DNA from: an uncultured Rikenellaceae bacterium
GTDB taxonomy: Bacteria; Bacteroidota; Bacteroidia; Bacteroidales; Rikenellaceae
Length of the DNA: 39,813 nt
Assembly: GCA_947038135.1 (NCBI GenBank)
Contig: CAMQVM010000001.1
Location: 1 to 39,813 of the forward strand
Direction of reading: 5' to 3'
The position numbers were made by a program, and so were the translations under genes. Below are positions 4,923-39,737 of this stretch, one piece after another. Each line of letters starts with the position of its first letter. Position 1 is the first letter of the stretch. The notes under the pieces were generated by a model that was not told where the DNA came from, searched no databases, and was given only the letters and a program-made list of their open reading frames with translations.

Positions 4923-4979
<57 letters not shown>

Positions 4980-5177: not shown

Positions 5178-8100
5178 ATGAAAAAGCTTTTATTATTTTT
5201 ATCAATTTTCACATTAATGAGTTGTGAAAGAGAAAATCTGTTCCTTTTTGAGAACTTCACCCCTGAGCTCGTCTACAATGGCATTGCCGTGGAACAAGGC
5301 GACACCACCTATTATTCCAGTTATACTGGCAAAGAGTTAGAGATTAGAATTAATCTCAATAACACTGCATCAAAAGAAAATTCCGAAATTTACAACATCT
5401 CTGTAATTAATAGAGAGGGTGTGCAATCTTCTATGAAGTTTAAAAATACAGATTTTGAAGTTGCATATAAAGAGGTATTTGGCTATGAGTCCATAACAGC
5501 AGATGATTTTTTAACTTTTGTTCTAAAACCACTTGAAGAAGGTGAGTTCACCTATGATTTTGAAATTTCTAACTCTGTTGGAAAGCAAGTTATCAAGGCT
5601 AAATTCTCTATAGTAACACCTATCTATGACATAGATTTAGGCGAGTTGCTAGATGTTGATAGTTTGGATTTGGAGCGCCCTAAATCCTTTGATTTGAGGA
5701 TTACAGACCCTTTGTCAAAAACAAAATCATCGCAGAAGATAAAAGCTAGTTATCGCTTTATTAATGGTGGCGGTAACTTTATCAATGCTGCAACTAATGA
5801 AGAGGTTACCGAGCTTACCGAGGGTATTAACAAAATTTCTGTTAACACCTCTAGTTTTGGCGCAAATGATATTGAGTTGACAATTACAGATAGCCAAGGA
5901 AGAGAGCAAAAAGAGGTTATTAGGTTGAAAAGCAAGAAACCCGAATTTGCAGTTATCGGCAAGAATATTAAGAGCACTATAATTAATGGTACAGATGCCA
6001 CAATTCAAGTTGATATTGATAATTTCATTCATCCAACTAATAACAGCTTTAACCTTACCTATGCTATAATAGATGTAGCCACTAGAGGTGAAATTGCAGA
6101 CACGACAATTTTGTCAACGCGTAAGGTAAAAGCTAATGCTATAAGTGGCATTATTACAGATACTTTAAGTGTACCAATTGAAAAAATAGGAAACCAAGAA
6201 ATTCATGTGTTTGGCACTGATAAATTTGGCTCAACCAAAAATGATCTCGTTAGAGTTAACGCCATAGATAGCGAGCTAACTATATCAGATGCAAAAGAGC
6301 TAACAGGTGCTGTTAATACTGCTATACCTTTTGTTATTGAGGTTGAGAGTAGCAATGGAGAAAGCTCTGATATAAAAAAAATCAACATCAAATTCAGCTC
6401 ATCGCAAGAAAATGCAGGTGTTGTAAAATTGAAAGATGATGTTATTACTTCTATCGACATAAAAGTAAACACTACCAATGAGTTTACCTACCTACCAAAG
6501 GTAGCAGGAAAATCAACACTTACAGCTATTGTAACATCATATATCAAAGAAGAGATATATGAGGTAAGAGAGTTAGTTTTTCCTATCAATACTACTCTTG
6601 GAGCAATTGAATTAGTTGAAACAGGTATAGAAGAAGGTGCTATTCATGAACTTAACAACCCAATAAACTTTACTCATGTATTAACAGAGATAGGTTACAC
6701 AGGTGATTTCAAAGTTCAATTTAACAGAATTGCAGGCAAGGGCACACTATCTACACCTACTATCAATGATATTGCTCACGCTACTACAATTGATATCGCA
6801 AGTGGCGTTAATACCAATTACACCTATCTGCCTACTACCGCTGGTAAGCATGAATTACATTTTATCATCACAGATAGCAATTTGCAAACTATTACACACA
6901 AAATCACTTTTGTTGTAACAGATAGCGATATAGAGGTAATAACAACAGATAGAGCGACACCGACAAAAGGCAAAACCAGCAGCTGGTTTTTAACTTTTTC
7001 AAAAGAGCACTACCAAGCTAGCAACTTCAATGTTGTGATGTCGCAAACAGTTGGCACTGGTGAATTTAAATTTGGCTCAAAAACAATATCTGCAAATGCT
7101 ACTTTTGATGTACAAAAAGATATTGCCTTTGCCTTTAGCTATACTCCATCTAGCCATGGCGATCACACTATTACGCTCAATATCCAAGCACAAAATAGCT
7201 CTACAATCACACCTTACATAATTACCTTTAATGTGCCTGTTGTACTAGCTGGAGAAGTTGATTTATTTGGCACAGCAGAGCTTCAAGGCTATGGACTTTA
7301 TAATGTAGGCACAGCAGTTACACTGTCATCAACTCCAGCAGTAGGCTATTCAATTGCAAGTATTAGCACCAAAAATAGCACTGGAGAGTTAACGCAAGTT
7401 GTTGGGGCTGGTGAAAAATCGCAAGTCGTTGAATATAAACTCGAAGCATTAGATGATTTAAATTTTGTTACGAAAACAAAAATAAATGATTATGCAATAG
7501 ATGTAAATGCTAACCCTATTGAGGGTGGCACTGTTACAGGTGGCGGTATCTATCCCTATAACACTGCTATCAATATATCATCTACACCTGCTAGAGGATG
7601 GTTGTTTAAGGGCTTATTTGATGGCACACACAAACTGTCAGATGCAGCACTATATAACTACACAATTCCTGCAAGCGATAAATCATTAGTTGCGAATTTT
7701 GAGAAGCAAAAACACCAAGTTAGCTTTATTAGCAATAATGTAGCCTTTGGTACTGTTATAGGTGGCGGAATCTACGAATATGGTGCTACTGTTAACCTTG
7801 TTGCAACGGCTACTTTAAATTATCGTTGCACTGGTATATGGGAGGGCGACACACAGGTTAGTGAAGATAATACATATACATTCACAGCAGGTGAAACACC
7901 AAGAAGTTTCAGAGCAGTTTTTGGACCAGTGCAACATACTGTTACTATTACACAGAGTGGCGATGGTGATTTTACACCACTTACAGGAAGTGTTGTTAAT
8001 CATGGCGAAGACCTCCTATTAATGTTAGTATCACACAATAAGATTTCAACTAATTTTGATGGGTGGTATATTAATAATGAATTAATATCACTTGATAATG

Positions 8101-8633
8101 CTTACCGATACAAAGTAACATCAACTATAACTATTGAGGCACGTGCAACTTTAAAACAATATTCAATTGGTATTAATAATCGTTATTTAACCTATAAATG
8201 GGGTGAGCAAGTAAATTTATCTCATGGGCAGGATTTCCCAAGTGATATACCTACTAATAGATTTATTAAGTGGCTGAAAAACAGCGAGGAGTTCAGCACT
8301 CAACGAAATATATCCTTTCTTGCGCAAGAGCAAGGAACAGAGCTATTAAATGGATCTTTATTGGCACCAAAAACAGAATTTGTAGCTGAAGTAGCTGAAA
8401 TCTATATATCACATGTAGATGCAAGCGGTTACTATGTCCTTGCAATCGGGAAGCCTGTATCAGTTCATGTTCATGCAAAAATGAGGTTTCCTACACAGGT
8501 CAATAATGGCAGTCTAGTCCAATGGCTTGAACACGCCTACACAATTCCAGCTGGAAAAACATCGGTTCGAGTTTCGAAAAGGATAGGAGATTTAAGATGT
8601 ACATTTATTTCTACTAATATTACCAACCCTTAA
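5178..8633 (+). CDS. Giant surface lipoprotein 2 (1151 aa): Ig-like repeats, about 4-5 divergent InlB-B-repeat domains, and a C-terminal domain
   Basis: Signal peptide with lipobox (FTLMSC) followed by CERE. Same architecture as lipoprotein 1, for example GGTVTGGGIYPYNTAINISSTPARGWLFKGLFDG...LVANF. Confidence 0.8.
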   Translation: MKKLLLFLSIFTLMSCERENLFLFENFTPELVYNGIAVEQGDTTYYSSYTGKELEIRINLNNTASKENSEIYNISVINREGVQSSMKFKNTDFEVAYKEVFGYESITADDFLTFVLKPLEEGEFTYDFEISNSVGKQVIKAKFSIVTPIYDIDLGELLDVDSLDLERPKSFDLRITDPLSKTKSSQKIKASYRFINGGGNFINAATNEEVTELTEGINKISVNTSSFGANDIELTITDSQGREQKEVIRLKSKKPEFAVIGKNIKSTIINGTDATIQVDIDNFIHPTNNSFNLTYAIIDVATRGEIADTTILSTRKVKANAISGIITDTLSVPIEKIGNQEIHVFGTDKFGSTKNDLVRVNAIDSELTISDAKELTGAVNTAIPFVIEVESSNGESSDIKKINIKFSSSQENAGVVKLKDDVITSIDIKVNTTNEFTYLPKVAGKSTLTAIVTSYIKEEIYEVRELVFPINTTLGAIELVETGIEEGAIHELNNPINFTHVLTEIGYTGDFKVQFNRIAGKGTLSTPTINDIAHATTIDIASGVNTNYTYLPTTAGKHELHFIITDSNLQTITHKITFVVTDSDIEVITTDRATPTKGKTSSWFLTFSKEHYQASNFNVVMSQTVGTGEFKFGSKTISANATFDVQKDIAFAFSYTPSSHGDHTITLNIQAQNSSTITPYIITFNVPVVLAGEVDLFGTAELQGYGLYNVGTAVTLSSTPAVGYSIASISTKNSTGELTQVVGAGEKSQVVEYKLEALDDLNFVTKTKINDYAIDVNANPIEGGTVTGGGIYPYNTAINISSTPARGWLFKGLFDGTHKLSDAALYNYTIPASDKSLVANFEKQKHQVSFISNNVAFGTVIGGGIYEYGATVNLVATATLNYRCTGIWEGDTQVSEDNTYTFTAGETPRSFRAVFGPVQHTVTITQSGDGDFTPLTGSVVNHGEDLLLMLVSHNKISTNFDGWYINNELISLDNAYRYKVTSTITIEARATLKQYSIGINNRYLTYKWGEQVNLSHGQDFPSDIPTNRFIKWLKNSEEFSTQRNISFLAQEQGTELLNGSLLAPKTEFVAEVAEIYISHVDASGYYVLAIGKPVSVHVHAKMRFPTQVNNGSLVQWLEHAYTIPAGKTSVRVSKRIGDLRCTFISTNITNP

Positions 8634-9313: not shown

Positions 9314-10957
9314 ATGAATGAAATTATAAGTATATTGATAGGCGTAGGGGGCGCATTGTTGTTTGAACAAAACAAATTATTGTTTGCATTTGGCGTACTG
9401 CTACTTACTGCAATACTGGTGTTATTTGATATCACTGGTGTTTTATTTTTGCTTGCAATATTTTGCATATCTGCTTTTTTCACTCTGTTTATAAAATCTT
9501 ACTTGATGGGTAAGAGATTCACAAAAACACCTGAGGAGCGTTTAGAAGCCTCAAAATATCAAGTAGAGATACCTGTAAAAGGTGGCAGTAATGTGTATAT
9601 TAAAAATCTCAGACAAGGCATTGTTGGTTATGGAGCTTCGGGAAGTGGAAAATCAGAATCATTAGGATGTACACTTTTGGAGCACTTTAATAAGTATAAT
9701 TTTGCGCTAGTATTATATGACCACAAAAATTTTGAGCTAACTCAATTTGCATATAATATCTATAGAAATAATACTAATGTATCATTTCACAGTTTCGCAA
9801 TTCAATCTCCTGAACATTCGGTGCGGTTAAACCCACTCGACCCTTTATATATCAAAGATGAAGCTTCTCTTAATGCCATTCTTAATGGTATCATAATAGG
9901 ATTTACTGGAAAAGAACCTACCGATGACACATCTAGGTACTTTCATAATGGTGCATTAAGTTTGCTAGCTGGCGTAACTTGGCGGTTAAAAACAGAGTTT
10001 CCCGACAAATGCAACTTACCTTATCTCGCTGCATTTATTCTCATGGCTGACCACGACGGTATAGAATATGATGCTAAAGGCAATGAATATAAGATACCTC
10101 TGCAACTACTTAAAGAATTTATAGAGGTAGATGATAGAGCTTCAATGCTAGCTAGTGTTTTTATGAAAATAAGTAACCCTAAAGAGCAAAGCTCATTGCT
10201 TGGTACTGTCGCATCTTATATGCGTACGATCTCTGACCCTGCGGTATTCTACCTGCTAAGTGCTAATGATTTTTTTCTTGACATAAATAAGAAAAACAAT
10301 AGAAAAGTATTATCATTAATTAATACTACTGGAACGCTAGGAAGTGTAATAACTCCTATCATATCTATGGTTGTGGAAACTATTTTTCAGAAAATTTCAG
10401 AATCATCAAATGAAGATGATATAGCATTTGTTCTTGATGAAGCGCCTCGACTACGAGCACAAAACTTAGGCGCACGAGTATCTACATTACGTGCCTTAGG
10501 AGTATCGTTTGTTTACTTGATGCAAGATAGAGTGCAGGCGAAAGTTGCAACAGATGGCAAGGAATATCTGATAGATGAAGTACTGGCTAACCTATCTACT
10601 AAATTTCTAGGCAAAGCCAATGACCCAAAAAGTGCTAAGAACTATGAGGGTTATTTCGAGGAGATAAAAGAAACACAAAAATCTATAACATCAGGCGGTT
10701 TTTTCTCGAAAGGTGGCAATAGAACTACCACATCTAAGAAAGATAGGCGTGAGGTAAAAGACTATGAATTTCAAAGGTTAAAACCTGGGGTGTTCTATTT
10801 TTTGTCAAATGAAGTTTCAAAAAAAATCACTTTTGCATACAACAAAATTAAGCATGACAAGGTGATGCCTCCGAAAGTTAGAAACATAACAATCGAAGAA
10901 TTAGAAGCAAACTATTTGCACATAATAAATGATGCAAAAACTTGCTTCTACAATTAA
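9314..10957 (+). CDS. Type IV coupling protein (TraG/TraD/VirD4 family), 547 aa
   Basis: Two N-terminal TM helices. Walker A GASGSGKSES. Walker-B-like FVLDEAPRL. Located at the head of the tra cluster. Confidence 0.85.
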   Translation: MNEIISILIGVGGALLFEQNKLLFAFGVLLLTAILVLFDITGVLFLLAIFCISAFFTLFIKSYLMGKRFTKTPEERLEASKYQVEIPVKGGSNVYIKNLRQGIVGYGASGSGKSESLGCTLLEHFNKYNFALVLYDHKNFELTQFAYNIYRNNTNVSFHSFAIQSPEHSVRLNPLDPLYIKDEASLNAILNGIIIGFTGKEPTDDTSRYFHNGALSLLAGVTWRLKTEFPDKCNLPYLAAFILMADHDGIEYDAKGNEYKIPLQLLKEFIEVDDRASMLASVFMKISNPKEQSSLLGTVASYMRTISDPAVFYLLSANDFFLDINKKNNRKVLSLINTTGTLGSVITPIISMVVETIFQKISESSNEDDIAFVLDEAPRLRAQNLGARVSTLRALGVSFVYLMQDRVQAKVATDGKEYLIDEVLANLSTKFLGKANDPKSAKNYEGYFEEIKETQKSITSGGFFSKGGNRTTTSKKDRREVKDYEFQRLKPGVFYFLSNEVSKKITFAYNKIKHDKVMPPKVRNITIEELEANYLHIINDAKTCFYN

Positions 10958-18316: not shown

Positions 18317-18640
18317 TTATTGCAAAAAATGACGAAGCCTTATGTAAATCTCTATAAGCTTACACCAATTAATTATCTTCATACTTACCGCTAGATTCTT
18401 TGCAGGTGCTATATCTTCTACACTTTTATCAAGAGAAACAGACTTTTTTTCTTCTAATTTAGTTACACTTGTTACTTCATTATAAGTATAACTTGTTACT
18501 TCATTATAAGTATAACGTGTAATACTTTTTTTAATATTATTCATAACATTTATTTCATTTATATATCTAACATTTCTTGTTAAATACTTGTCAAGCAATA
18601 TATAACATAAATTTGATTTATCCAAATTTAATTTTAACAA
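18317..18640 (-). CDS. Hypothetical protein (up to 107 aa) at the distal end of the mob operon
   Basis: ORF starts 5 nt after the M23 gene stop on the same strand. It contains a perfect 24-bp tandem duplication (18467-18514). No recognisable motif. Confidence 0.3.
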   Translation of the reverse strand: MLKLNLDKSNLCYILLDKYLTRNVRYINEINVMNNIKKSITRYTYNEVTSYTYNEVTSVTKLEEKKSVSLDKSVEDIAPAKNLAVSMKIINWCKLIEIYIRLRHFLQ

Positions 18641-18645: not shown

Positions 18646-19254
18646 CTATTTTTGCATTTCAAACAGTAGCTCACAATAATCAAGAGGGTTGATAAATACA
18701 CCATTTTTCTTAATTCCATAGTGCACGTGTGGACCTGTACTATCTCCTGTGCTACCGCATAAACCTATCGGTTTTGAAATCTTGACAACTTCACCTGTAA
18801 CCACTAATATCTTAGATAGATGACCATATACTGTTTCAAAACCGCATATATGGCGAACTTTGACAAAATTACCTAATCTTCTATCATACCCTTGACTAGT
18901 CACCTTACCATCTGCTGACACTACAACTGTATCACCATGGCTCAATGGCAGATCTATGCCATTATGATGCTTAACATTACCATGTATCGGATGAACTCGG
19001 CGACCATAATGTGAACTAACACGTAACTGGTGGTAAACAAAAGTAGGAGGTATACAAGGTATTTGATAGATTAAATCACTCTCCCACTCTATTAATTTCA
19101 ATAGTGATATAATACTATCACTACTATTCATTGATGTTATTAGCGCCTTGATATCCCGCTCTATTTTTTCATCATTGCTGATAGTAGCATTAGATGAACA
19201 TACAGCAATAACGATTATCATAACTAAGACTTTACATTTCATTTGTATTTTCAT
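18646..19254 (-). CDS. M23-family metallopeptidase (peptidoglycan hydrolase) with signal peptide
   Basis: Motifs HNGIDLP and GSTGDSTGPHVHYGIKKNG (HxxxD / HxH of M23). Overlaps the relaxase stop. Confidence 0.85.
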   Translation of the reverse strand: MKIQMKCKVLVMIIVIAVCSSNATISNDEKIERDIKALITSMNSSDSIISLLKLIEWESDLIYQIPCIPPTFVYHQLRVSSHYGRRVHPIHGNVKHHNGIDLPLSHGDTVVVSADGKVTSQGYDRRLGNFVKVRHICGFETVYGHLSKILVVTGEVVKISKPIGLCGSTGDSTGPHVHYGIKKNGVFINPLDYCELLFEMQK

Positions 19255-22200
19255 TTTTAAGTACTGTTTTTGTGATATCTACACCCAATGCGACAACATT
19301 AGCATAAGGAACTGCCTTAGAGATTAAAGACATTGCCGACCTACTCGCAACACCCTTAGCAGTCGATACAGCAATTTGTTTGATTCTTTCGTTTTGAATG
19401 CCTTTAACATTTTTGTACATTTTTATGCTCTTAATAGTTGTTTGATATGCTTTTTTATGCCCTTGTAATTCTGTATCAGTGGTCGAATATATAGCAGTTA
19501 TTGCCGCTCTCTTTAAATTATACCCCAATGCCTGTGCCATTGTTCTTTGCTCCAACATAACAAATTTATCCTCATTGAGATTATTATACTCTTTTGTTTT
19601 AGGAACAAACATTTTTCCACTCATGTAGTACGAATATTCTAATTTCGATATCTCTCGCTCTACGTCTTTGGCTCGCTTTTCATCTAGAGTAGGGTCAAAA
19701 GCTTTTTTACCTTCTTTTATATACACCTGTTCAACTTTATTTTTAGCCGCAATCTCAATGTTTTTGTAATCGTCCCTATTCAGAGTTTCAAAGTTATTGC
19801 GAGCGAATTTATTTTTATCAATATTTGCATAATCAATTCCTTGAATTTTAGGAACATTAATTATACCCTCTCGGTAGTAGAGGTTCTCCATCCTATTACT
19901 CTCAGTTCTTGTTCTCTCTTCAATCTCTTTTGGTGTTAGATTTTCGTATTTATTGTTGATTTTATCTTCTACAATTTTCTTGATAACATCTATGTCAATG
20001 CAGTTCAAAGGTTCAATATTTGACGTTTTGAATTTTGATAAATCTACATCTTGATAATCTCCTTTTGGGAGTAAAAATTCTACTCTACTTTTGATCGTTT
20101 TTCTCGTGACACCGAATAGAAATTTTTTTTCTGTTATTTTGGGGCTTCTATCCTTGGCGTAATATTTATACTCCAGCTTATTATACTCTCTTTCAATTAG
20201 CTTTGTTTTCTCCTCAATAGGCATATCACTTGGTGATTTTGCATTAACAATATGAGTAGCAACATCATGCAAAACTCTGTAATCGGCTTTATCCAAAGTT
20301 TGACCAGTCGACACGAGAAATTTTTCCTTGTCACAAGTAAGACCAAGATTTGGAATTGCTAGTTCTGAACGTAGGTAGTATGTATTTTCTAATACTTTCA
20401 TCTCTTTGTTAATCAATTCAATCCTATCAGCTTTATCAATATTAGGATTTAGTTCTGAAATTTTATACTCTGCCACCTCGCTTAGCACTTTGATATCCTT
20501 TGCAGTGAGCATTTTGGCTTCTGAAAATACCGCTTTATCAAACGTCACATCAACATCTTTAGGCACAGATATATTACCGTTATTCATATATTGATACCGC
20601 ATTTTTTCAACATCACTATATATTTGACGACTACGTTCCTTTTCCTCCAAGTCTAATTCCTTTGCATCTATCTTAATAGTTGCAATTTCTTTCATTTTGC
20701 CATAATCTGCACTTGTCAATGGCTTGTGTTCAGATATCTTAAACTTACTGTTTAATTCTACATCTGTATTGTACACGTACATCTCTCCAGTAGCAGCATA
20801 ATTTTTTTCCATCGACACAATTTCACTATATATCAACCTCTCTTTTTCCAAATCTTCTAACAATACATTATCATATCTAGCCTCTATTTTCTGCTCTGCC
20901 ACTGCAAACATAAGCTTATAATCAGCACTATTCAAATCAATTGCTCTACTGCTATCATCAATTACTCCAGTGTTATAATATACCCCCTCTAATGTTCTAA
21001 CTCCTCTCTCTATATAATAGTCACCTTTAAATTCCTTAAAGTTATCTCCAAGTCGCATATTAACCTGCGAAGAGGCTATATCATTGATTAAAGCATAATC
21101 TTCCTTTGTCAACGAGCGATACTCGGAGATAGCGAATTTAGTAGCATCACAATCAACACCTATATTAGGAATGATTAATCTATCATCTGCATTGTCGTAA
21201 GCATTTTTAATCTGCCATTTTTCTTTATTAATAAGATTGTATTTTTCCTTGTTTGTAAGATTTTCAGCGTAGGTATTAACCTTATAAATTGCTAATGCTT
21301 CAACGAAATCATTATCTAATTTAGTAAATGCCCTCTTTTCAGTAACATGAAAAATTTCTTTTTCATTAATATCAAAATCAACCTTATTGATAGATATATC
21401 CCCCCTATTGTAATATTGAGATTCTAAACGGTTATACTCTTTTTTGCACTCTTTGTCAAACCTATTTTTGTCAATAGTCATTGTATTAGTTGAATCGACA
21501 TGATAATTAGTTACATTGAAATGTGCTATTTTCTTAATTGTAATTATTTCTTTTTCTGATAAGATTCTATAATTAGTGAACACAAATTTACTTTTGTCAA
21601 TTGTTTCTGGTATTATTAAATCTTTAATCGCTGGTACATTAATAATACCTGTGCTATAATAGCTCATTTTCATTCTTCTAATACCTGTTAATACATCATT
21701 TTTATTATGTTTAGCCTCTGCAATAGTCTTAATAAAATCTAATTCTATACCAGTTATAGCATTGTAATTAACAACCTTGTAAACATCACTTAATGGTGGC
21801 ATTTCTTGCGAAAATCCTAAATCTTTTATCGCCTGAGGCAATGTTATCTCCCCAGTGCTACAGTAGCATTTTAACAATTCTTCTACATCCTTAGGTATGA
21901 TTATAGTTCCAGTGGTATAATAGCCAAACTCTATACTTTCATAACTGGTTAAAGCGTATTTGGGTGCGACACTCCCCTCTTCTATGCTCTTATAAATCTC
22001 GGCTAGCGCAATCATTTCATTTCTCAGCTCTGCATCTACATACTGAATTGGCACATGATTAAATATGTGATTACTTGGTATGCTCTCTTCGTTAATCGTC
22101 ACTAAACAATCAGTTGATTTATTAACATAAACATTTATCTTACCTGTTGATAAAAATTCATCGAATATTTTTTTGATGTTGTTTTCGATATCATTAGTAA

Positions 22201-24928
22201 TATCTGTGTACATTTCTCTTTTTAAATCAACATTAGCAACACTAATGTACCTCTCTTCTCGAGCTTTAGCATATGCCAAAGTAATTATTTCCGTACTATA
22301 TTCCTGTCCTAACACTGTTAATTCTGCTTGTCGACTATGATTCGACAGTACTTTATTAAGTAACGAATTACTATTAATATATTTAGTTTCTTTAATTTTA
22401 ATCATCTCATTGCGCATATCTACGAGTTGATCATGAACAAGTCGAATATCTTGCGGTCTATTGATATTGGTGTGTGTCCAATTTCTAAAGTTTAATTCAT
22501 GTATTTTATCATCGCTAATACTCGAGAGATAATTGTTATTTAACTGACTGGTTGATATAGAATCAACAGTTCTGAATATATTACTACCTGTACTTGCTTC
22601 TAGTGTTTCAATATACCCATCTTTATAATATGACAATTCCATTCGCTTTGCCTCTCTGAACAAAGCTGCTTGGTCACCACAATATTGCTTAGCATGGTTA
22701 TATATCTTCTCTATTTCTATTGCACTTAGGGGTCTATTTGCAGAAAGCAAAATAGCATCTTTCAAACAAACCCCACTATTTAATTCCTCTCCACCTAGTA
22801 ATTTTAGTGACATATCTATATAAGCATCATCTATTTTTGGAATATATATTGTACCTGTAGCCATATATTGCAGATACATCATTTCTCTATCAAGCTGAGA
22901 ATACCTGTCTAACTGAGCGGATGACAATTGTAAATGTGAATCTCTTATGATTTTATCTGTTGCAACCTTAATTGCTATATCTACTGTATTAGAATACTCT
23001 TCATTCTTTATTTCCATTGATTTTAGAGCATCATCATAAAATTTATGGTACATTACAACACCCTCTCTGTTAAAGCTGTATTTGTCTCTATCTTGAAATT
23101 CAAAATCATCTCTTTTTAAATTAACAGAATCGAAAGTTACACCCTCACTATTTAAATCGTTCATGCGCTCATTTCTTGATATATATAAGTTGTTGTCAAT
23201 ATGAAATAATTTTGATATTTTTTCATATTCATATAACCATTTATTTTCTATATCAGATATATTTTCCTTGATTGCCATATCGAGCCTAAGGCTGTCAATT
23301 ACTGAATCATTTGCTTTTTCTAAATAACCATTGGCTAACTGACTTGTAGATATAGCATTAACTTTTTTAAAGAGCTCTGCATTATCATCATTATATAATG
23401 TTTCAATATACCCATCTTTATAATATGACAACTCCATTCGCTTTGCCTCCTTGAATATAGATATTTCATCTTTACAATATAATTTTGCATGATTATTAAT
23501 GTGCAACATCTCTATATCAGACAACCACTTTTTTTCAGAAAATACAAATTTATCCTGATCACATTCTACTATCTCAAAATACTTGCGTGTCGCAATATTT
23601 ATCTTAGAAAATCGAGGAATCACAATAACACCATTAGCAGCATATTGGTTAATCATTAAAGCTATTTCTGCATCATTTTTATGAATATCTAAATTTAATC
23701 CACGTTCAACAAACAAGTAATTTTCTATTGCTTTTATATTTGTTCCATCTAATATATCTTGATTTGCGATAAACTCATTAGATGAATCAATTGGGTTATA
23801 TTCATCAAAAGATAACCTCGCATATCCATCTGCAAATGCTTCTATTTGACTATCACGGATTGAAAATACAGGTGATATCTCCCTCCATTCTCTGAGCTCT
23901 GCATCCCTCAATTCTCTGAGGTCTGTATCACTATGCGAAACCTCTTCTGAATATCTTGAACTTCTTTTTATTCTCTCTTCATTAATGCTTAACTCTCTAC
24001 CTTGACTTATCTTTTTTTGCTCTTTAAAATAACTATATGTTTCCTCGAATTTACGAGTAAAAAGAAAGTAATTATCAAAAGTATCTTCACACTGCTGATA
24101 CCATTTATCCCTATCAAACCCTACTTTAAAACTATTCTTACCAACTTTACCTGCGTGTCCTTTAGAATTTGCCATTGGACTTAATTTGGACTTACCCGAC
24201 TTACTTTTACGTGATACAATAATATGCACATGATAATTCTGATATGTAGATGGCTTAGGCATCATGTCCCTAATTGGTATATCTCGCCCTCCACTTATTA
24301 CTGTACTTTCCAATATTAACTGCTCATTGAGCTTTGTAATCCGATCGCTGTTAACCTCACCATTTGCGGCTAACTTCTCTATTTTTGAGTATATGACTTC
24401 ATTTTTTCTTACATCTTGACTGTCCTTTGACTTCCAATATCTTTCCCTCTCCGCTCTACCATACCACATTAAATCACTAGCATCATTGATGTTTTCACGC
24501 CCAAATGCTTTAGCGTAATTATCCATACTTTTGATAGTGTATTCTTTCATCAAAGTTTTCATGATTATCTCTTTTAGCTCATCATCGCTGAGTGACAAAT
24601 CATGTTCAATATCATTGTCTTTAATCTTCGCAAGCAGATTATCAGAAATATCGTTAAGATGCTCCAATTCTTTAGCAGATGGTGCTATCAGAATTGGGTA
24701 AAATCGGGCTTCTTCTTTCCCTATTCCTTGACAATTTCCATCGATATTTTGGTACACCTCCTCTGACTCAATTTTGATAGAAGAGTCGTTAAAAAAACAA
24801 TCTGCATCACTAACTACCTCCTTATCTAGGTAGTCAATGAATTGTTTCGACAATCTGTTTTCCTTGTCTAAATACTCTACTAATTCCTTTGCTTTTTCTG
24901 TTGTTGGAGCGATTATATTAACGTACAT
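19232..24928 (-). CDS. mobB: Giant relaxase fusion (1898 aa): N-terminal Bacteroidetes MobB-type relaxase domain (about aa 1-300) plus a ~1500-aa repeat array
   Basis: N-terminus MYVNIIAP...YLDKEN...ARFYPILIAPSAKELEHL...YHVHIIVSRKSKSGKSKLSP...FDRDKW matches the Bacteroidetes MobB/DUF5712-type relaxase pattern. The remainder is about 15 modules with an E...YY..G.I.VP signature. Confidence 0.8.
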   Translation of the reverse strand: MYVNIIAPTTEKAKELVEYLDKENRLSKQFIDYLDKEVVSDADCFFNDSSIKIESEEVYQNIDGNCQGIGKEEARFYPILIAPSAKELEHLNDISDNLLAKIKDNDIEHDLSLSDDELKEIIMKTLMKEYTIKSMDNYAKAFGRENINDASDLMWYGRAERERYWKSKDSQDVRKNEVIYSKIEKLAANGEVNSDRITKLNEQLILESTVISGGRDIPIRDMMPKPSTYQNYHVHIIVSRKSKSGKSKLSPMANSKGHAGKVGKNSFKVGFDRDKWYQQCEDTFDNYFLFTRKFEETYSYFKEQKKISQGRELSINEERIKRSSRYSEEVSHSDTDLRELRDAELREWREISPVFSIRDSQIEAFADGYARLSFDEYNPIDSSNEFIANQDILDGTNIKAIENYLFVERGLNLDIHKNDAEIALMINQYAANGVIVIPRFSKINIATRKYFEIVECDQDKFVFSEKKWLSDIEMLHINNHAKLYCKDEISIFKEAKRMELSYYKDGYIETLYNDDNAELFKKVNAISTSQLANGYLEKANDSVIDSLRLDMAIKENISDIENKWLYEYEKISKLFHIDNNLYISRNERMNDLNSEGVTFDSVNLKRDDFEFQDRDKYSFNREGVVMYHKFYDDALKSMEIKNEEYSNTVDIAIKVATDKIIRDSHLQLSSAQLDRYSQLDREMMYLQYMATGTIYIPKIDDAYIDMSLKLLGGEELNSGVCLKDAILLSANRPLSAIEIEKIYNHAKQYCGDQAALFREAKRMELSYYKDGYIETLEASTGSNIFRTVDSISTSQLNNNYLSSISDDKIHELNFRNWTHTNINRPQDIRLVHDQLVDMRNEMIKIKETKYINSNSLLNKVLSNHSRQAELTVLGQEYSTEIITLAYAKAREERYISVANVDLKREMYTDITNDIENNIKKIFDEFLSTGKINVYVNKSTDCLVTINEESIPSNHIFNHVPIQYVDAELRNEMIALAEIYKSIEEGSVAPKYALTSYESIEFGYYTTGTIIIPKDVEELLKCYCSTGEITLPQAIKDLGFSQEMPPLSDVYKVVNYNAITGIELDFIKTIAEAKHNKNDVLTGIRRMKMSYYSTGIINVPAIKDLIIPETIDKSKFVFTNYRILSEKEIITIKKIAHFNVTNYHVDSTNTMTIDKNRFDKECKKEYNRLESQYYNRGDISINKVDFDINEKEIFHVTEKRAFTKLDNDFVEALAIYKVNTYAENLTNKEKYNLINKEKWQIKNAYDNADDRLIIPNIGVDCDATKFAISEYRSLTKEDYALINDIASSQVNMRLGDNFKEFKGDYYIERGVRTLEGVYYNTGVIDDSSRAIDLNSADYKLMFAVAEQKIEARYDNVLLEDLEKERLIYSEIVSMEKNYAATGEMYVYNTDVELNSKFKISEHKPLTSADYGKMKEIATIKIDAKELDLEEKERSRQIYSDVEKMRYQYMNNGNISVPKDVDVTFDKAVFSEAKMLTAKDIKVLSEVAEYKISELNPNIDKADRIELINKEMKVLENTYYLRSELAIPNLGLTCDKEKFLVSTGQTLDKADYRVLHDVATHIVNAKSPSDMPIEEKTKLIEREYNKLEYKYYAKDRSPKITEKKFLFGVTRKTIKSRVEFLLPKGDYQDVDLSKFKTSNIEPLNCIDIDVIKKIVEDKINNKYENLTPKEIEERTRTESNRMENLYYREGIINVPKIQGIDYANIDKNKFARNNFETLNRDDYKNIEIAAKNKVEQVYIKEGKKAFDPTLDEKRAKDVEREISKLEYSYYMSGKMFVPKTKEYNNLNEDKFVMLEQRTMAQALGYNLKRAAITAIYSTTDTELQGHKKAYQTTIKSIKMYKNVKGIQNERIKQIAVSTAKGVASRSAMSLISKAVPYANVVALGVDITKTVLKNENTNEM

Positions 24929-24938: not shown

Positions 24939-25337
24939 TTACTTGTTATTGATGGCTTCTACAAACTTTTTTTTGCTACTCATATAATGGTATATGATCT
25001 GTCTTTTTGGGTGAAGTTTATTTATTTCGGACTCAATACTCTCTATGGATTCAAATAAAGGTGTACCGTATTTGACTATATCATCGGCATAATCTAACAT
25101 AATTTTCTTGCTCGTACAGTTATCACCACCCCACTCATTTTTTGCTATCAACACAGCTTCACACCTACTTGTAAATCGCCTTAATTGATGGATAGGAACA
25201 CAGGTGGGAGCATCATTATTTACTACAAACATCTCATTTTTAATCACCTGCTTTTGTATCTCTTCATCTGTTGAGTGAATCCAATTAACAAGCATCACGC
25301 CATCTAAATTTATTATGTTTACCTCTATCATAATCAC
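24939..25337 (-). CDS. Hypothetical protein, 132 aa, between the accessory gene and the relaxase
   Basis: Tightly packed in the mob operon (10-nt and 6-nt gaps). No motif recognised. Confidence 0.5.
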   Translation of the reverse strand: MIMIEVNIINLDGVMLVNWIHSTDEEIQKQVIKNEMFVVNNDAPTCVPIHQLRRFTSRCEAVLIAKNEWGGDNCTSKKIMLDYADDIVKYGTPLFESIESIESEINKLHPKRQIIYHYMSSKKKFVEAINNK

Positions 25338-25343: not shown

Positions 25344-25946
25344 TTATTTTAACAACTCACTTATTCTTGACCTTAAATCACCCAATTCAGCCTCAGTAAA
25401 GGACCTCTTATAAACATGTACTTTACTCAATGTATCAAACTCCTTATCAAAAAGTGCTTCGTCCAGGACTGAATTTAAAATTATCTTTTTCAACTCACTT
25501 TTTACCGAACTATTCACATCATCAACAGGAGCTGACTTTGCCTGAGGTGTAAACTCATTTTCATCCTCATTCAAATATCCATCAATCTCTGCTTGTCTTT
25601 CTTCGTGAATTTTCTCTTCTTCTGACTGCCTATGTTTCTCTTGGTGATTTTCGGGGAACAAAGTAATCACTTTGGTTTTAATTTCTTTTACCTGTTCTTC
25701 AATAGGGCGAAAATACTGCTTACTTTGTCGCTTCATTTCCTTTAGAATTTCTCTGTTCCCCTCGTCTATTTTATTCTTGATTATTGCTAAACTCGTTGCT
25801 CCCTTATCATCCAAACGTATATCATTATCTATAAAAAAACTAATTGCTTTATCAACGGTTTGCAACATCGACCTATGTTCTCGAGAAGCTAAAGACTTAA
25901 TTTTATCCCTAGTGAGAGCTTCTACTCTAATCATCACATTTTCCAT
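25344..25946 (-). CDS. Putative relaxosome accessory protein with an RHH-like N-terminus (MobA/MobC-analogue)
   Basis: Start reassigned to MENVMIRVEALTRDKIKSLA... (beta strand then two helices). Acidic, coiled C-terminus. First gene of the mob operon. Confidence 0.5.
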   Translation of the reverse strand: MENVMIRVEALTRDKIKSLASREHRSMLQTVDKAISFFIDNDIRLDDKGATSLAIIKNKIDEGNREILKEMKRQSKQYFRPIEEQVKEIKTKVITLFPENHQEKHRQSEEEKIHEERQAEIDGYLNEDENEFTPQAKSAPVDDVNSSVKSELKKIILNSVLDEALFDKEFDTLSKVHVYKRSFTEAELGDLRSRISELLK

Positions 25947-26109
25947 TATTTTATCTTTTATTATACTAAAGTTATACATATTTTGACTGTAAATTAAGCA
26001 CTTATATTTCACATTTCAAAATTTGTATACATTTTATTTTTTTTGTATAACTATTCAATTTACCTATTATACTAATTTACACCTATTTAGCATTGTTCTA
26101 TGCTTTGTA

Positions 26110-26130
26110 GAATCGGACTTTGTCCGATTC
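26110..26130. promoter_or_regulatory. 9-bp inverted repeat GAATCGGAC-TTT-GTCCGATTC; candidate oriT hairpin or terminator
   Basis: Perfect hairpin in the gap upstream of the mob operon, abutting the G-rich repeats. Confidence 0.35.
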
Positions 26131-26133
26131 CCT

Positions 26134-26420
26134 CTTGATCTTTTTTTTGTCTTCAGGGTGGGATGTCTTGGATAGCTCAGATGGGTGGTGGGATGTCTTG
26201 GATGGCTCGGATGGGTGGGGGCTCGGATGGGTGGTGGGATGTCTTGATCTTTTTTTTGTCTTCAGGGTGGGATGTCTTGGATAGCTCAGATGGGTGGTGG
26301 GATGTCTTGGATGGCTCGGATGGGTGGGGGGATGTCTTGGATGGCTCGGATGGGTGGGGGGCTTGGATGGCTCGGATGGGCGGAACTGGTGGAGCTGGTG
26401 GATCTGGTGGAACTGCTGGT
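26134..26420 (+). repeat. G-rich nested tandem repeats: 109-bp unit x2 (26134-26242, 26243-26351) containing ~30-bp subrepeats GGGATGTCTTGGATRGCTCRGATGGGTGGKG, then 9-nt repeats GANCTGGTG x4
   Basis: Periodicity read directly. The strong G skew on the plus strand contrasts with the AT-rich surroundings. A canonical G4 motif is at 26213-26238. Confidence 0.9.
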
Positions 26421-26433
26421 TTTTCCTCTGAAA

Positions 26434-26538
26434 AAATACTTGTTTTTTTAAGTATTTACTTGTTTTATTCAAAATTTTTTTGTACCTTTGTAGGGATAAT
26501 TAACACTAACAAAAACACTAAAACTGTTTTGCTGACAG
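26434..26538 (+). promoter_or_regulatory. Promoter/leader cassette copy 1, with Bacteroidetes -7 box TACCTTTG at 26483-26490
   Basis: About 85 nt nearly identical to 26953-27037. The TAnnTTTG box is preceded by CTTG about 20 nt upstream. Ends 24 nt before the DUF2958 ATG. Confidence 0.6.
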
Positions 26539-26561
26539 CCTAAACAAAAGCAAAAAATATT

Positions 26562-26882
26562 ATGAAATTATTAACAGAAGAGTTAAAAACGAAGTTACAA
26601 AATTTTCCGCTTTATTCACAAGACAAAAAAGCAGATGAAGCAAAAGTGATTTGTAAATTTTTTACGCCTGTTGGCGAATTTAGATGGTATGTCATTGAGG
26701 GCGAATTTCAAGAAAACGACTGGATTTTTTTTGGTTTAGTTTTCAACGGTGATGATTCCGAATATGGATATTTTTCTTTAAACGAATTAACCGCTATCAA
26801 ACTCCCCTTTGGGCTTACAATTGAACGAGATTTATACTTTAGTGATAAAACTATAAGCGAAGTAAAGAAGTTACACAGGTAA
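26562..26882 (+). CDS. DUF2958-family protein, 106 aa
   Basis: KFFTPVGEFRWYVIEGE...FFGLV...EYGYFSLNEL...LPFGLTIERDLYF matches the DUF2958 signature common in conjugative-element leading regions. Confidence 0.8.
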   Translation: MKLLTEELKTKLQNFPLYSQDKKADEAKVICKFFTPVGEFRWYVIEGEFQENDWIFFGLVFNGDDSEYGYFSLNELTAIKLPFGLTIERDLYFSDKTISEVKKLHR

Positions 26883-26890
26883 TCAAAAAA

Positions 26891-26927
26891 TTAAAGAGAG
26901 TGTTTGAAAACACTCTCTTTAATTTTT
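26891..26927 (+). terminator. Intrinsic terminator after the DUF2958 gene
   Basis: 14-bp stem TTAAAGAGAGTGTT / AACACTCTCTTTAA plus TTTTT. Confidence 0.8.
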
Positions 26928-27132: not shown

Positions 27133-27744
27133 ATGATTATGTGGTTGGAACTTATGGCAAAAAAAATCATGTATCAAAATTGGTGGGATGCTCTTGGCGA
27201 GATTTACGAAAACTGTGTAGTTTCCAAAAGTAAGGCAACCAGCACAGGGCAATTCTTTACACCTCCAACCGTATGTGATATGATGGCGCAAGTAATTAAC
27301 GGTACTGAGCCTATTTTTAACAAAGATATTTCTGACCCTACCTGTGGCAGTGGTCGCAATTTACTTGCCTTTAATGCTATTAATCCAGGTAATAACTTAT
27401 ATGCTGAGGATATCGACAAAACAAGCTGTTTAATGACAGTTGCCAACTTTCTAGTTCATGGCATTAAGGGGGAGGTTGTTTGGCATGATTCTTTGGCGGC
27501 TACTTCGTGGTTTGGCGGCTGGAAAGTGAACGAGTTTTTTCATAATCCATTCTCTGAACTGTGTAACTTTCCCCATATGCGCCCAATAGAGCAATGTGAT
27601 AGTTATATAATGGCTATGCGTACCGCTGACAAAGTTACCCTATCAGGAGAGGAGAAAGAGATAAAAAAACCTATATCTGAAACAATAAACAAAGTTGTGC
27701 AAGTTCCAAATGTTCAGTTATCATTTTGGGATTTAGACTACTAA
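27133..27744 (+). CDS. N6-adenine methyltransferase-like protein (203 aa) lacking the catalytic (N/D)PP(F/Y) motif
   Basis: Motif X GQFFTPPTV, motif I DPTCGSGRNLL and motif II-like YAEDID are present. VVWHDSL sits where NPPF/Y is expected. Alternative ATGs lie close to 27133. Confidence 0.65.
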   Translation: MIMWLELMAKKIMYQNWWDALGEIYENCVVSKSKATSTGQFFTPPTVCDMMAQVINGTEPIFNKDISDPTCGSGRNLLAFNAINPGNNLYAEDIDKTSCLMTVANFLVHGIKGEVVWHDSLAATSWFGGWKVNEFFHNPFSELCNFPHMRPIEQCDSYIMAMRTADKVTLSGEEKEIKKPISETINKVVQVPNVQLSFWDLDY

Positions 27745-29057: not shown

Positions 29058-31409
29058 ATGGACATCTCAGATATAAACACATGGTATAAAGAGTTTGGGT
29101 TACTTCCAGTACATCTAACACACAAAGGCATTAATAATAAATATTTGATGCTGAATGGTGGTATAGGTGATTTTTGTCTTCATCTTTCAATGCAAGGAGA
29201 TCTAGCGAATGCTATTTCATATAACTCAGATTCATGGTCAGCAAATACAAAAAATTTTGTTGTAATAGACAATGACAAAGTAACAATACACAACTGGCTA
29301 AAACAAGATCCTGAAGAAATAAAAATTAATGCTGTCTTAGGCAATTTAGATAAATTTTATTCATATTTATTATCTAAGTCGTATAGGACGGAGAATGATA
29401 TAATCCCATTTGTTATAGAGACATTTAGACAACTTAGGAATATTACACAAGAATCAAAGTCTCCTGCTATAGCTTTGAATTTATTATACAGATTGCTAAT
29501 TTCTTTAAATGAGGACTATTCAACTATTGACAGTGACAAATGGGGTATAGATAATGTTCCCATACCTAATCAATTCGATTTTTTTGTTGATAAAATAAAA
29601 AGTGGCATTAATTCAAAAGTCCCAAATATGGATATAATATTAAGACATACAGCTGGCGCCCTATTCCAAGAAGCTCATAGAGATGCATTATACTTCAATC
29701 CTCAAAGAGATTTATTTGGAGGTGTATCAAGTGATTTAATTACTAAACGAGACCTTTATACGAGTGCTCATTATACACCTCAGTATGTTGCAAGAACTAT
29801 TGTAGAGCAAAGTTTAGAGAAGGTTGATCTAACAAGCCTAACTTTAAAAATTTTAGATCCGGCTTGCGGTTCTTCAGAATTTTTAATGGAAGCTCTGAAA
29901 CAATTAAAAAACAAAAACTATATTGGCATTATTACTATACATGGCTGGGATATCTCTGATATAGCTATAAATACATCCCGCTTCTTACTGCAATACGAAA
30001 AAGAAACCATTTGGAAAGAGAAATTAAATTTTCAAATTGAGATTGTAACTGATTCCTTAAGAAAGGACTGGGATAATGATTATGATGTAATTTTAATGAA
30101 TCCACCATTTATTTCATGGGAACTTCTTGGCAAGGAATCAAAAGAATCTGTTATAGAAACCTTACAAGATGTAAATTTATCACTAAAGAAACCAAATCTG
30201 GCAAGTGCATTTTTTCACAAGGCGGCTAAATCTATTAATGCAAAAGGGGTATTAGGTTGTGTTTTACCAACCTCACTATTTATATTTGATAGCTATTCAA
30301 ATCTAAGAACCTCAATTAGTGATAGTCTAACATTATCATTAATAGCAAAACTTGGAGATTTTGTTTTTGAGGGAGCTTTAACAGATGTCAGCTTGTTTAT
30401 TGGGCATAGACCTCAAAATTCATTAGTAATGCCAAAATTAATTTGGTGTAATAATGAAAAAGGAGTGGTGGGTGCAGCTTTAAGAGACTTAAGAAAGATG
30501 TCAGCAAATAATAATGAATCGTTCATTGTAAGTGAAAAAAAATATAGCATTTATACTCCTGCTCAGTTCCCAATACTGAAAGATAATTGGAAGGTTGTAT
30601 CACATAACGAAAATAAATTCGTGATTGATTTAGATATTGCATTAAATCAACAGAGGTTAACAGAGCTTAATAATATATTTACAGTAAAACAAGGTATAAG
30701 ATCGGGGAGTAATACAGCATTTGTAATAAGTATAAGCGACTATGATAATTTACCTAACGAAGAAAAATATTTGTATCGCAAATCAATAAATAATGACAGC
30801 ATTAAAGGAGGTAAGCTAAATCTAACCAATTATATTTGGTATCCTTATAATACTGATGGATTGATCTTTAATAACGAAAAAAAATTACAACAGAGTGCGC
30901 CTAAGTCATATGATAGATTAAAGCCGTATATCGACTCTCTATCATCAAGAAAGAGTATCAGTCCAGGGTCATGGTGGAGCTTGAGTAGGCATAGAGTATG
31001 GGTAACAAAAGCTGAGCCACGTTTATTTTCAAATGAATTTGGTAATTCAAACTCATTTGCATTTGACAAGAAAGGTGACTATGTTGTTGAAAGAGGAAAT
31101 GCTTGGATACCTAAGAAGAAATTTAAAAATGAAGATTACTATTTTTACTTGGCATTTTTTGCTAGTGATATTTTTGACAAATTACTTTCTATATACAATA
31201 AGCAGTTGTCAGGAGGAAATAGTTATGATCTAAGTGCTAAATATTCAAAAAAGATTCCTATTCCAGATGTTCATAAATGTCGTGATAGTGCCGCATATAA
31301 TGACCTATCTCAGCTAGGACAGCTAATAATTGAAGATGGGAACAAATTTTATAAGAATAAAATAGATTATATATTAACTCAATATTTTTATATGGAATAC
31401 AATGGTTAA
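29058..31409 (+). CDS. Eco57I/type IIG-like gamma-class N6-adenine DNA methyltransferase, 783 aa
   Basis: YTPQYVARTIVEQSL (motif X), ILDPACGSSEFL (motif I, about 29857) and VILMNPPFISW (motif IV, NPPF at 30098-30109). Large N-terminal (~230 aa) and C-terminal (~400 aa) extensions. Confidence 0.85.
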   Translation: MDISDINTWYKEFGLLPVHLTHKGINNKYLMLNGGIGDFCLHLSMQGDLANAISYNSDSWSANTKNFVVIDNDKVTIHNWLKQDPEEIKINAVLGNLDKFYSYLLSKSYRTENDIIPFVIETFRQLRNITQESKSPAIALNLLYRLLISLNEDYSTIDSDKWGIDNVPIPNQFDFFVDKIKSGINSKVPNMDIILRHTAGALFQEAHRDALYFNPQRDLFGGVSSDLITKRDLYTSAHYTPQYVARTIVEQSLEKVDLTSLTLKILDPACGSSEFLMEALKQLKNKNYIGIITIHGWDISDIAINTSRFLLQYEKETIWKEKLNFQIEIVTDSLRKDWDNDYDVILMNPPFISWELLGKESKESVIETLQDVNLSLKKPNLASAFFHKAAKSINAKGVLGCVLPTSLFIFDSYSNLRTSISDSLTLSLIAKLGDFVFEGALTDVSLFIGHRPQNSLVMPKLIWCNNEKGVVGAALRDLRKMSANNNESFIVSEKKYSIYTPAQFPILKDNWKVVSHNENKFVIDLDIALNQQRLTELNNIFTVKQGIRSGSNTAFVISISDYDNLPNEEKYLYRKSINNDSIKGGKLNLTNYIWYPYNTDGLIFNNEKKLQQSAPKSYDRLKPYIDSLSSRKSISPGSWWSLSRHRVWVTKAEPRLFSNEFGNSNSFAFDKKGDYVVERGNAWIPKKKFKNEDYYFYLAFFASDIFDKLLSIYNKQLSGGNSYDLSAKYSKKIPIPDVHKCRDSAAYNDLSQLGQLIIEDGNKFYKNKIDYILTQYFYMEYNG

Positions 31410-36414: not shown

Positions 36415-36820
36415 GATATAAAATAAAACGACCCGCCGATTTGAGCATTGTAAAGAGGCTTGGCAGGTACTGTTGCCTGCAAAGATAATACATTATTTAG
36501 TAAATTACAACTTTCCTCACCTTTTTTTACCTTTTTTCACAATATATAAGTATTTCTATATCTTTTATTTTATCTACATTAGTATCTACATTAAGTCAAA
36601 TAAATCAAAGATTAAAATAAATACAAATATTACCTAATTTCATATTCAAAATAAGATGTTTTACATTTATTTGAACACGCTAGTTAAATGAATACAAAAA
36701 CTATTATGATATAATAATTTGTTTTGCTCTTGTATTTCATCACATAAATCTTTTGTTTTGTAAAATATTATTTTGTTTTATAAAATATTAATTATACCTT
36801 TGGTCTATAATAATATAACA

Positions 36821-39736: not shown

Positions 39737-39737
39737 G

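Follow-up and report, generated by a model that had tools for sequence, protein, structure and literature searches.

Why should a conjugative relaxase carry about 1450 amino acids (aa) of repeats between its catalytic core and its C-terminal tail? The question is raised by a 39,813-nucleotide (nt) stretch of DNA from an uncultured Rikenellaceae bacterium (assembly GCA_947038135.1, contig CAMQVM010000001.1, positions 1 to 39,813 of the forward strand). We refer to this whole stretch as the window, and all coordinates below are window positions. On its minus strand lies the gene of a protein of 1898 aa, which an earlier note, made from the letters alone, had described as a MobB-type nuclease domain fused to about 15 copies of a novel module. 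Our analysis places the protein in the MobB/DUF5712 relaxase family on the basis of its Pfam score, its invariant residues and its gene context. It also indicates that the array is an insertion in front of a conserved tail, built from a module of ~63-77 aa without a match in the domain and structure databases that we searched. The main parts of the gene are the following.

19232..24928, minus: giant MobB-family relaxase gene, 1898 aa, ATG start, stop codon at 19232-19234 (open reading frame list and translation)
23945..24928, minus: relaxase catalytic core, aa 1-328 (Pfam and NCBIfam matches, invariant residues)
24872..24874, minus: Tyr19 in VEYLDKEN (YLxKE motif), candidate catalytic tyrosine, invariant in 16/16 MobB homologs
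24224..24232, minus: H233-V-H235 in YHVHIIVSR, candidate metal-binding HxH motif, H233 invariant and H235 conserved in at least 90%
23750..23944, minus: acidic linker, aa 329-393, isoelectric point (pI) 4.8
21890..23749, minus: degenerate part of the array, aa 394-1013, seven partial modules scoring 10-42 bits against the module hidden Markov model (HMM)
19598..21787, minus: regular part of the array, aa 1048-1777, ten well-preserved modules scoring 35-71 bits each against the module HMM
19235..19588, minus: conserved basic C-terminal tail, aa 1781-1898, net charge +8, pI 9.8, homologous to the tails of a clade of shorter relaxases

The gene is a single open reading frame (ORF), as the earlier note had it, to which the strand can now be added. 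The coding frame contains no internal stop; each of the other five frames over the same 5.7 kb carries 81-298 stops at a GC content of 32%, equal to that of the rest of the window, so the frame has clearly been maintained. The ORF list contains no plus-strand ORF of at least 80 aa that overlaps the gene.

The N-terminal core matched Pfam PF18976 (DUF5712) at 187.4 bits (cutoff 25, E 5.7e-55) over aa 24-328 and profile positions 14-245 of 289. Against NCBIfam NF041495 (MobB_relaxase), aa 1-297 covered the full profile (1-267) at 182.2 bits, which is below the equivalog cutoff of 200; by these scores the giant relaxase is a divergent MobB member below the NCBI equivalog level. In an alignment of 16 diverse MobB proteins (this one and 15 family members), all 23 invariant columns are kept here, including Y19, K22, E23 and H233, and H235, conserved in at least 90% of the 16, is present as well. 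Tyr19 resembles motif I of the MOBQ/MOBP relaxases, which we take to make it the candidate catalytic tyrosine; by the same kind of analogy, the HxH motif would bind metal. To judge from its sequence, then, aa 1-328 form an intact MobB/DUF5712 relaxase core, in agreement with what the earlier note had read at the N-terminus. The peptide motifs quoted there are all present: HVHIIVSRKS...KLSP, FDRDKW, MELSYYKDGYIETL (twice), IEFGYYTTGTIIIPK, MKMSYYSTGIINVPA, MRYQYMNNGNISVPK, MENLYYREGIINVPK and LEYSYYMSGKMFVPK. The linker that follows (aa 329-393) contained no module by the module HMM and no family match in Pfam, and it holds a 24-nt tandem duplication at 23880-23929.

From aa ~394 to ~1777, an iterated module HMM detected 17-18 module copies; the 17 counted here comprise ten well-preserved and seven degenerate or partial ones, where the earlier note had counted about 15. 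The module core comprises 63 match positions (consensus KFKVSEIKLLTKEDYKNIEKIAKIKIENRYGELSEKEKDKEIEKEINRMENSYYKTGKIIVP), and the period averages ~76 aa in the regular part. That the remaining ~1500 aa are a periodic array, as had been noted, is supported in two ways. BLAST of fragments of the protein against itself gave many off-diagonal matches over aa 390-1790. A first module HMM, built from seven hand-picked units, recovered additional non-seed units at 12-29 bits, compared with 5 bits for the best of 50 shuffles of the protein, and the periodicity is therefore real. The copies are laid out on the minus strand as follows.

aa 394-438, 459-509, 521-564, 654-697, 726-774, 909-933 and 991-1012, minus: seven partial or degenerate modules (module HMM)
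21632-21787, minus: regular module 1, aa 1048-1099
21389-21592, minus: regular module 2, aa 1113-1180
21167-21358, minus: regular module 3, aa 1191-1254
20960-21142, minus: regular module 4, aa 1263-1323
20774-20935, minus: regular module 5, aa 1332-1385
20561-20749, minus: regular module 6, aa 1394-1456
20351-20539, minus: regular module 7, aa 1464-1526
20153-20326, minus: regular module 8, aa 1535-1592
19850-20038, minus: regular module 9, aa 1631-1693
19601-19813, minus: regular module 10, aa 1706-1776
23255..23659, minus: super-repeat copy 1, aa 424-558, 42-55% aa identity to aa 683-823
22460..22882, minus: super-repeat copy 2, aa 683-823, present as a single copy in the related giant P0004

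The super-repeat corresponds to an internal duplication that had been called near-identical. Its position stands; its near-identity does not, as the DNA copies (23336-23515 and 22541-22720, spaced by 795 nt or 265 aa) are 78% identical and the protein copies 42-55%, as part of a larger 265-aa super-repeat. Since P0004 has a single copy, this duplication is specific to the present lineage.

The module appears to be new. Scans of the giant relaxase against Pfam, NCBIfam, PHROGs and PADLOC gave no match beyond the relaxase core. Eleven two- or three-module segments compared with Pfam at E <= 10 returned scattered single matches, none of them recurrent, and the module profile matched none of the PDB sequences (best E 0.8). 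Searches by predicted fold gave the same picture. With Foldseek, an AlphaFold2 model of a single module (predicted local distance difference test, pLDDT, 81) found nothing in the PDB at E <= 0.001 (best E 2.5). A three-module model found nothing at that threshold either, with a best E of 0.9 in the PDB and 0.29 in BFVD and template modelling (TM) scores of at most 0.23. The earlier note had not recognised the module as a known domain, and none of these searches supplied one. On the strength of the searches and models, we regard it as a previously undescribed fold unit and a new domain family, absent from Pfam, the PDB and BFVD.

20123..20764, minus: three modules modelled together with AlphaFold2, aa 1389-1602, mean pLDDT 88.9, predicted TM score (pTM) 0.80

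The AlphaFold2 models were computed from alignments of 11-12 paralogous or orthologous rows, which for the three-module model consisted of non-overlapping triples. Every module contributes two of the six helices in this model, and two beta-hairpins (strands E65-67/E78-80 and E135-137/E149-151) connect the modules. Each module is thus predicted to fold into a helical hairpin, with helices of ~17 and ~22 residues. At the predicted junctions, the G-x-I-x-V-P strand at the C-terminal end of one module and the K-F-x-V-S strand at the start of the next form a two-stranded beta-hairpin. The high pTM of the three-module model suggests that the array forms a continuous rod-like body in which the modules keep a fixed orientation. 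As a rough estimate, taken from typical helical-repeat geometries rather than from coordinates, the folded array might be 20-60 nm long; unfolded, it would measure very roughly 500 nm.

In a comparison of 53 modules from the four proteins, conservation was seen at F3, L11, Y16, I19, I22, A23, L34, I43, I47, M50, Y54, Y55, G58, I60, V62 and P63, together with a T/S-x-x-D capping box. These positions are mostly hydrophobic or helix-capping and follow a heptad-like pattern, as expected of a buried core face. Surface positions and net charge vary, and the pI of the array is ~5.0-5.8 here, 5.2 in P0004 and 8.9 in the giant P0005. Because the conserved positions look like a core and neither surface nor charge is conserved, the modules appear to be structural, unlike repeated ligand-binding sites.

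How does this protein compare with ordinary members of its family? A profile of four giant N-terminal domains retrieved 98 DUF5712 homologs, all of 182-469 aa, and two annotated plasmid MobB proteins have 381 and 383 aa. The earlier statement that such relaxases are a few hundred residues long is borne out by this survey, and the giant, five times the normal size, falls outside the range of the family. The gene neighbourhoods of its nearest clade (P0010-P0028, 429-469 aa, ~40% identity) and of the giants agree in their order, which is MobA-like ORF, MobB, coupling protein, TraG ATPase, TraM and TraN. No module was found in this sister clade or in other ordinary members, and the module showed no similarity to the linker or tail of the short clade from which it might have originated. 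The nearest plasmid homologs of TraG and MobB are in Flavobacterium, Chryseobacterium and Myroides, at ~30-35% identity. Scans of species-representative genomes with relaxase-core and TraG ATPase profiles gave pattern matches that tblastn did not confirm.

The short sister clade ends in an Ala/Ser/Lys-rich tail of ~100 aa, and this tail is what defines the position of the array. In all four giants, the best match to an HMM of the short-clade tails lay at the extreme C-terminus, and profile-profile comparison of giant and short-clade tails with hhalign gave a probability of 94.9% (E 4.5e-8, 81 columns). The isolated tail matched nothing in Pfam; the homology is visible only with the sister-clade tail profile. 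Because the tail matches the short-clade C-termini, the array was inserted between core and conserved tail and not appended. The earlier note must be revised on both points: it had taken only the first ~300 aa as MobB-like, and the last ~100 aa are homologous too; and it had seen the array as an appendage on the C-terminal side of the nuclease domain. The distance from core to tail is ~50 aa in the sister clade, compared with ~1000-1500 aa in the giants. In three giants, the tail has a net charge of +8 to +18 and a pI of 9.8-10.7. Here it ends in a moderately hydrophobic stretch, AMSLISKAVPYANVVALGV. DUF5712 relaxases seem to have acquired large insertions more than once, as two metagenomic proteins of 1051 aa (P0002 and P0003) carry an unrelated insert of ~700 aa inside the catalytic domain, where it separates the N-terminal motifs from the HxH motif.

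When 1.84 billion representative proteins were searched exhaustively with the module profile by HMMER, four true matches and three spurious weak matches to other repeat proteins were returned. The true matches are these.

This protein: 1898 aa, 17 modules
P0004 (locus L003): 1620 aa, 14 modules
P0005: 1296 aa, 12 modules
P0006: fragment of 384 aa, the C-terminal piece of a 1351-aa ORF broken by a run of N (L007:1753-5808)

The plan of MobB core, array and tail is common to all four giants, each of which is a singleton from a metagenome assembly, with its gene embedded in a similar conjugation backbone of Bacteroidota type. The three contigs that encode P0005 are identical in DNA. The module was not found in other reading frames of the window or of any fetched locus outside the giant relaxase genes. 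Two further searches add little. A word-indexed search with a three-module profile found nothing and missed even P0004 and P0005, so that it carries no weight against the exhaustive HMMER result; a full-length protein search was swamped by low-complexity words and returned the protein itself and the two long DUF5712 proteins P0002 and P0003, which is uninformative on family size.

Within this small family, the arrays can be compared module by module. P0004 is collinear with the present protein at 33% identity over 1245 aa, with the 265-aa duplication found only here, and P0005 and the L007 protein are likewise collinear with each other. Module-by-module collinearity also shows in a MAFFT alignment of overlapping three-module segments, which staggered its rows by identity. 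The arrays of the four lineages are 23-33% identical. Several modules are 40-53% identical to their positional counterpart in P0004 (40-48% in the regular part), compared with a mean of 24% between paralogs; because positional orthologs are closer than paralogs, the array is old and its modules have been retained individually. Copy number is nevertheless still changing, as shown by duplications, namely the super-repeat here and tandem copies in L007. At L007 3500-4700, several consecutive modules are up to 94% identical (e.g. LLTKEQYNEFQRIATIIESSHKGEKVTAPEIETRVNSMVARYYFSGYVSIPKDMEVVNKD), which points to a recent expansion of that array, and a run of N interrupts the scaffold there. The L007 protein has at least 1351 aa, and its true copy number may be higher than detected.

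The window as a whole is best explained as a ~40-kb conjugative plasmid of Bacteroidota type, with the giant protein as its conjugative relaxase. The relaxase gene lies in a tight five-gene operon on the minus strand. The other members of the operon and the coupling protein gene are listed here.

25344..26012, minus: probable MobA/BfmA-type accessory protein, 222 aa, opening the mob operon (weak match to NCBIfam mob_BfmA_Nterm at E 0.0057, under the cutoff)
24939..25337, minus: 132-aa ORF between the MobA-like gene and the relaxase, no family match, 10 nt from the relaxase start
18646..19254, minus: M23 peptidoglycan endopeptidase gene (Pfam Peptidase_M23, E 6e-27), overlapping the relaxase stop by 23 nt
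18317-18640, minus: 107-aa ORF, last gene of the operon
9314..10957, plus: type IV coupling protein (Pfam T4SS-DNA_transf, TrwB_AAD_bind and TraG-D_C)

An ORF of 164-194 aa occupies the position of the MobA-like gene upstream of the relaxase in L003, L004, L007, L008 and L009. An M23 gene also follows the P0004 relaxase (L003 5663-6274), and none follows the relaxases of P0005 and L007. Upstream, the plus strand encodes the coupling protein, a VirB4-like TraG ATPase, TraK, TraM and TraN. This mobilisation context fits the MobB family, with the reservation that the match of the MobA-like ORF is weak. From general conjugation biology, the coupling protein is the presumed docking partner of the relaxase. 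Further along are ParA, a resolvase, Abi_2 and methyltransferases.

Several other features of the window were recorded. A 32-nt tandem repeat (GTGGCTAGTTATATACACCTTTTGGGGGTATT, 5.4 copies) occupies positions 1-172, and matching copies lie at ~39735-39813; these terminal repeats are iteron-like, as at a replication origin, and they suggest that the contig represents a circular plasmid of ~40 kb, opened within them. In this replicon of 32% GC, a G-rich stretch at 26133-26419, close upstream of the mob operon, consists of tandem units of ~30 nt and 109 nt (e.g. GGGATGTCTTGGATGGCTCGGATGGGTGG) and overlaps ORFs at 26098-26472 (minus) and 26163-26543 (plus); it may be a coding repeat, an origin of transfer (oriT) or a regulatory array. 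A DUF2958 protein gene (26562-26882, plus) is divergent from the mob operon, and just downstream of it lies a perfect inverted repeat with arms of 20 nt and a spacer of 2 nt (AAAAATTAAAGAGAGTGTTT / AAACACTCTCTTTAATTTTT, 26886-26927), which could be a terminator, a protein-binding site or a site resembling an oriT.

Two large paralogous proteins of 1048 and 1151 aa (1688-4834 and 5178-8633, plus) contain InlB B-repeat (Flg_new_2) domains and are probably surface proteins. Between their genes, at 4924-4977, runs a perfect 54-nt (AG)27 tract that could be a slippage-prone site of phase variation. ORFs of the N6-adenine methyltransferase type are found at 27133-27744 (203 aa) and 29058-31409 (783 aa), both plus and ~1.3 kb apart. 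The larger has Eco57I/MmeI-like signatures, and the pair may be a split or rearranged restriction-modification gene of type II-G/L-like character. Directly upstream of the Abi_2 gene (35476-36414, minus), the Rfam abiF RNA motif RF03085 was detected at 36431-36467 (minus; 57.8 bits, gathering threshold 37).

Two explanations would deprive the array of any function. The protein might be an artefact, either of mis-assembled repeats, a possibility raised by the earlier note, or of a relaxase gene falsely joined to a downstream repeat-protein gene. Assembly errors are common in repeat-rich genes, and a run of N does lie inside the related L007 array. However, the closest DNA copies within the gene are 78% identical over 120 nt, too divergent to collapse or expand, so mis-assembly is unlikely. 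The head-array-tail plan recurs in four independent assemblies, the relaxase-family tail follows the array in frame, and the giant protein is present on 4 contigs. We consider an artefact extremely improbable. The array could also be a nearly neutral expansion: slippage during replication, or unequal recombination, would have enlarged a core-to-tail linker that is prone to duplication, and the outcome would be tolerated without a function. The variation in copy number among members (10-17 detected), the recent duplications here and in L007, the extreme rarity of the family and the decay of the modules nearest the core would all fit. Yet an uninterrupted insert of ~1450 aa has been kept at 32% GC in four lineages whose arrays have diverged so far, the fold-defining residues are conserved across the 53 modules, and positional orthology persists. 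Together these observations indicate purifying selection on a folded array, and we judge neutral expansion improbable.

If the array is functional, what might it do? Our tentative proposal, which we put forward as possible and not as established, is that it is a structural rod or leader between a DNA-linked head and a tail for docking and translocation, and that it is threaded and refolded during transfer. The head would nick oriT and stay covalently bound to the 5' end via Tyr19, and the basic tail would dock on the coupling protein and serve as a C-terminal translocation signal. Because the array is located between this signal and the head, it would go through the type IV channel before the DNA, in an unfolded state. 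It would then refold module by module in the recipient. Acting as a folding ratchet or leader, it would keep the transfer from being reversed, and a long rod would be left attached to the incoming 5' end. The narrower form of this idea, a translocation leader whose reversibly folding modules thread first, refold in the recipient and rectify or pull DNA transfer, is in our estimation rather doubtful. In favour of the rod or leader speak the relaxase identity, the tra context, the homology that marks the array as an insertion and the tail as conserved, the basic character of the tail and the predicted rigid junctions. The core-like conserved positions, the long-term retention of modules and their confinement to relaxase genes also fit. 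The tail is positively charged and conserved, as C-terminal signals of type IV secretion systems require, a property that is necessary and not sufficient.

Several considerations weigh against the proposal. The ratchet or leader step is drawn purely from the order of the domains. Internal rather than C-terminal translocation signals occur in known relaxases, and the tail may serve another purpose; its terminal stretch AMSLISKAVPYANVVALGV could instead be an anchor to a membrane or protein in the donor. The sister clade of short relaxases apparently does well enough with no array, so it should be dispensable for basic transfer. The geometry and length of the rod are predicted from AlphaFold models that rest on shallow, hand-built alignments, and a family of four gives limited comparative power.

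Two other functional readings place the action of the array elsewhere. It could be a recipient-side effector, delivered with the DNA, that coats or protects the 5' single strand, aids recircularisation or decoys defence systems; we see this as unlikely. Relaxases are piloted into recipients. The most conserved aromatics, Y54 and Y55, occur once per module and could line a nucleic-acid-binding face, and the cargo of the window (Abi_2, N6-methyltransferases) is of defence or counter-defence type. Conjugative elements also commonly deliver large protective proteins (PMC5512222). Against such a role, the charge of the array is inconsistent among the giants: a DNA mimic would be expected to be more strongly acidic, and a DNA coat to be basic throughout. 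Moreover, the conserved positions are core-like rather than surface-like, and no anti-restriction or polyvalent-protein domain was matched in PADLOC, PHROGs or Pfam. By these analyses of charge and conservation, the ideas of a defence decoy by DNA mimicry and of a DNA coat, two of the roles listed in the earlier note, and that of a multivalent binder are weakened. The remaining reading keeps the array in the donor, untranslocated, as a scaffold or tether: the tail would be anchored at the coupling protein or membrane, and the rod would keep the head at a set distance or offer a multivalent platform to partners in the relaxosome or in cell wall remodelling. A conserved, basic tail with a moderately hydrophobic end suits this, as do rigid junctions for a spacer and, in this subclade, the overlap of the relaxase gene with that of the M23 peptidoglycan hydrolase. 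However, a folded rod of 215 kDa covalently attached to the transferred strand would obstruct transfer unless it were unfolded or cleaved, which disfavours the scaffold. The M23 linkage is absent at the P0005 and L007 loci, and no conserved surface residues mark a repeated site for partner binding. We give the donor-side role, too, a low probability.

Known systems resemble the giant relaxase in part. It shares its N-terminal ~300 aa, its tail and its gene neighbourhood with the MobB relaxases (MOB_B, DUF5712, NF041495) of Bacteroidota plasmids and conjugative transposons, from which it differs by its size and its ~1450-aa, 17-module insertion. P0002 and P0003 are likewise over-long MobB relatives with extra sequence inserted internally, but their insert lies within the relaxase domain, differs in sequence and contains no copy of the module. 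Polyvalent proteins are very large proteins of conjugative elements and phages, encoded beside relaxase or type IV secretion genes and thought to enter the recipient with the DNA, and they string together 2-15 different enzymatic or effector domains (PMC5512222; Iyer, Burroughs, Anand, de Souza, Aravind 2017). The giant matches them in size, in being encoded by a conjugative element and in its position near such genes. However, it has one catalytic domain (DUF5712), a single repeated non-catalytic module and none of their domains. Judged by this domain content, it falls outside the polyvalent proteins as described in PMC5512222.

Like TraI of F and MobA of RSF1010, the giant has a relaxase head followed by a long C-terminal region. 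TraI is a relaxase-helicase and MobA a relaxase-primase, with translocation signals outside the catalytic domain; their extensions are enzymatic, whereas Pfam and NCBIfam scans of the giant gave no P-loop, primase or other enzymatic signature. The RTX proteins of type I secretion combine cargo, tandem small repeats and a C-terminal signal, are exported C-terminus first and refold sequentially outside the cell. The likeness lies in the order of cargo, repeats and signal and is a functional analogy only: RTX proteins use type I secretion and a calcium-binding beta-roll and have no sequence relation to the giant. Spectrin repeats and the FIVAR-GA repeats of staphylococcal Ebh are also tandem small helical units that make up an elongated body, as predicted for the array. 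They are three-helix bundles, unlike the helical hairpin with its beta-hairpin junction, and Foldseek gave no similarity of the module to any structure in the PDB or BFVD.

In conjugation, the relaxase is the only protein known to accompany the DNA, and Bacteroidota-type systems transfer resistance genes and others among bacteria of the gut and the environment. To our knowledge, how relaxases are recognised, unfolded, threaded and refolded is poorly understood in general and hardly at all for these systems. The general importance of the giants is limited by their rarity, with four members among the ~15 billion proteins searched, and the module merits a family definition of its own. The family nonetheless offers a natural experiment, in which the same head and tail are separated by a short or a long distance on comparable transfer backbones. 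This makes it possible to test the tail as a translocation signal, the passage of a long folded cargo, and whether repeat modules help or hinder transfer. If the proposed mechanism is true, a folding ratchet would be a principle new to conjugation, carried by a fold without a known relative.

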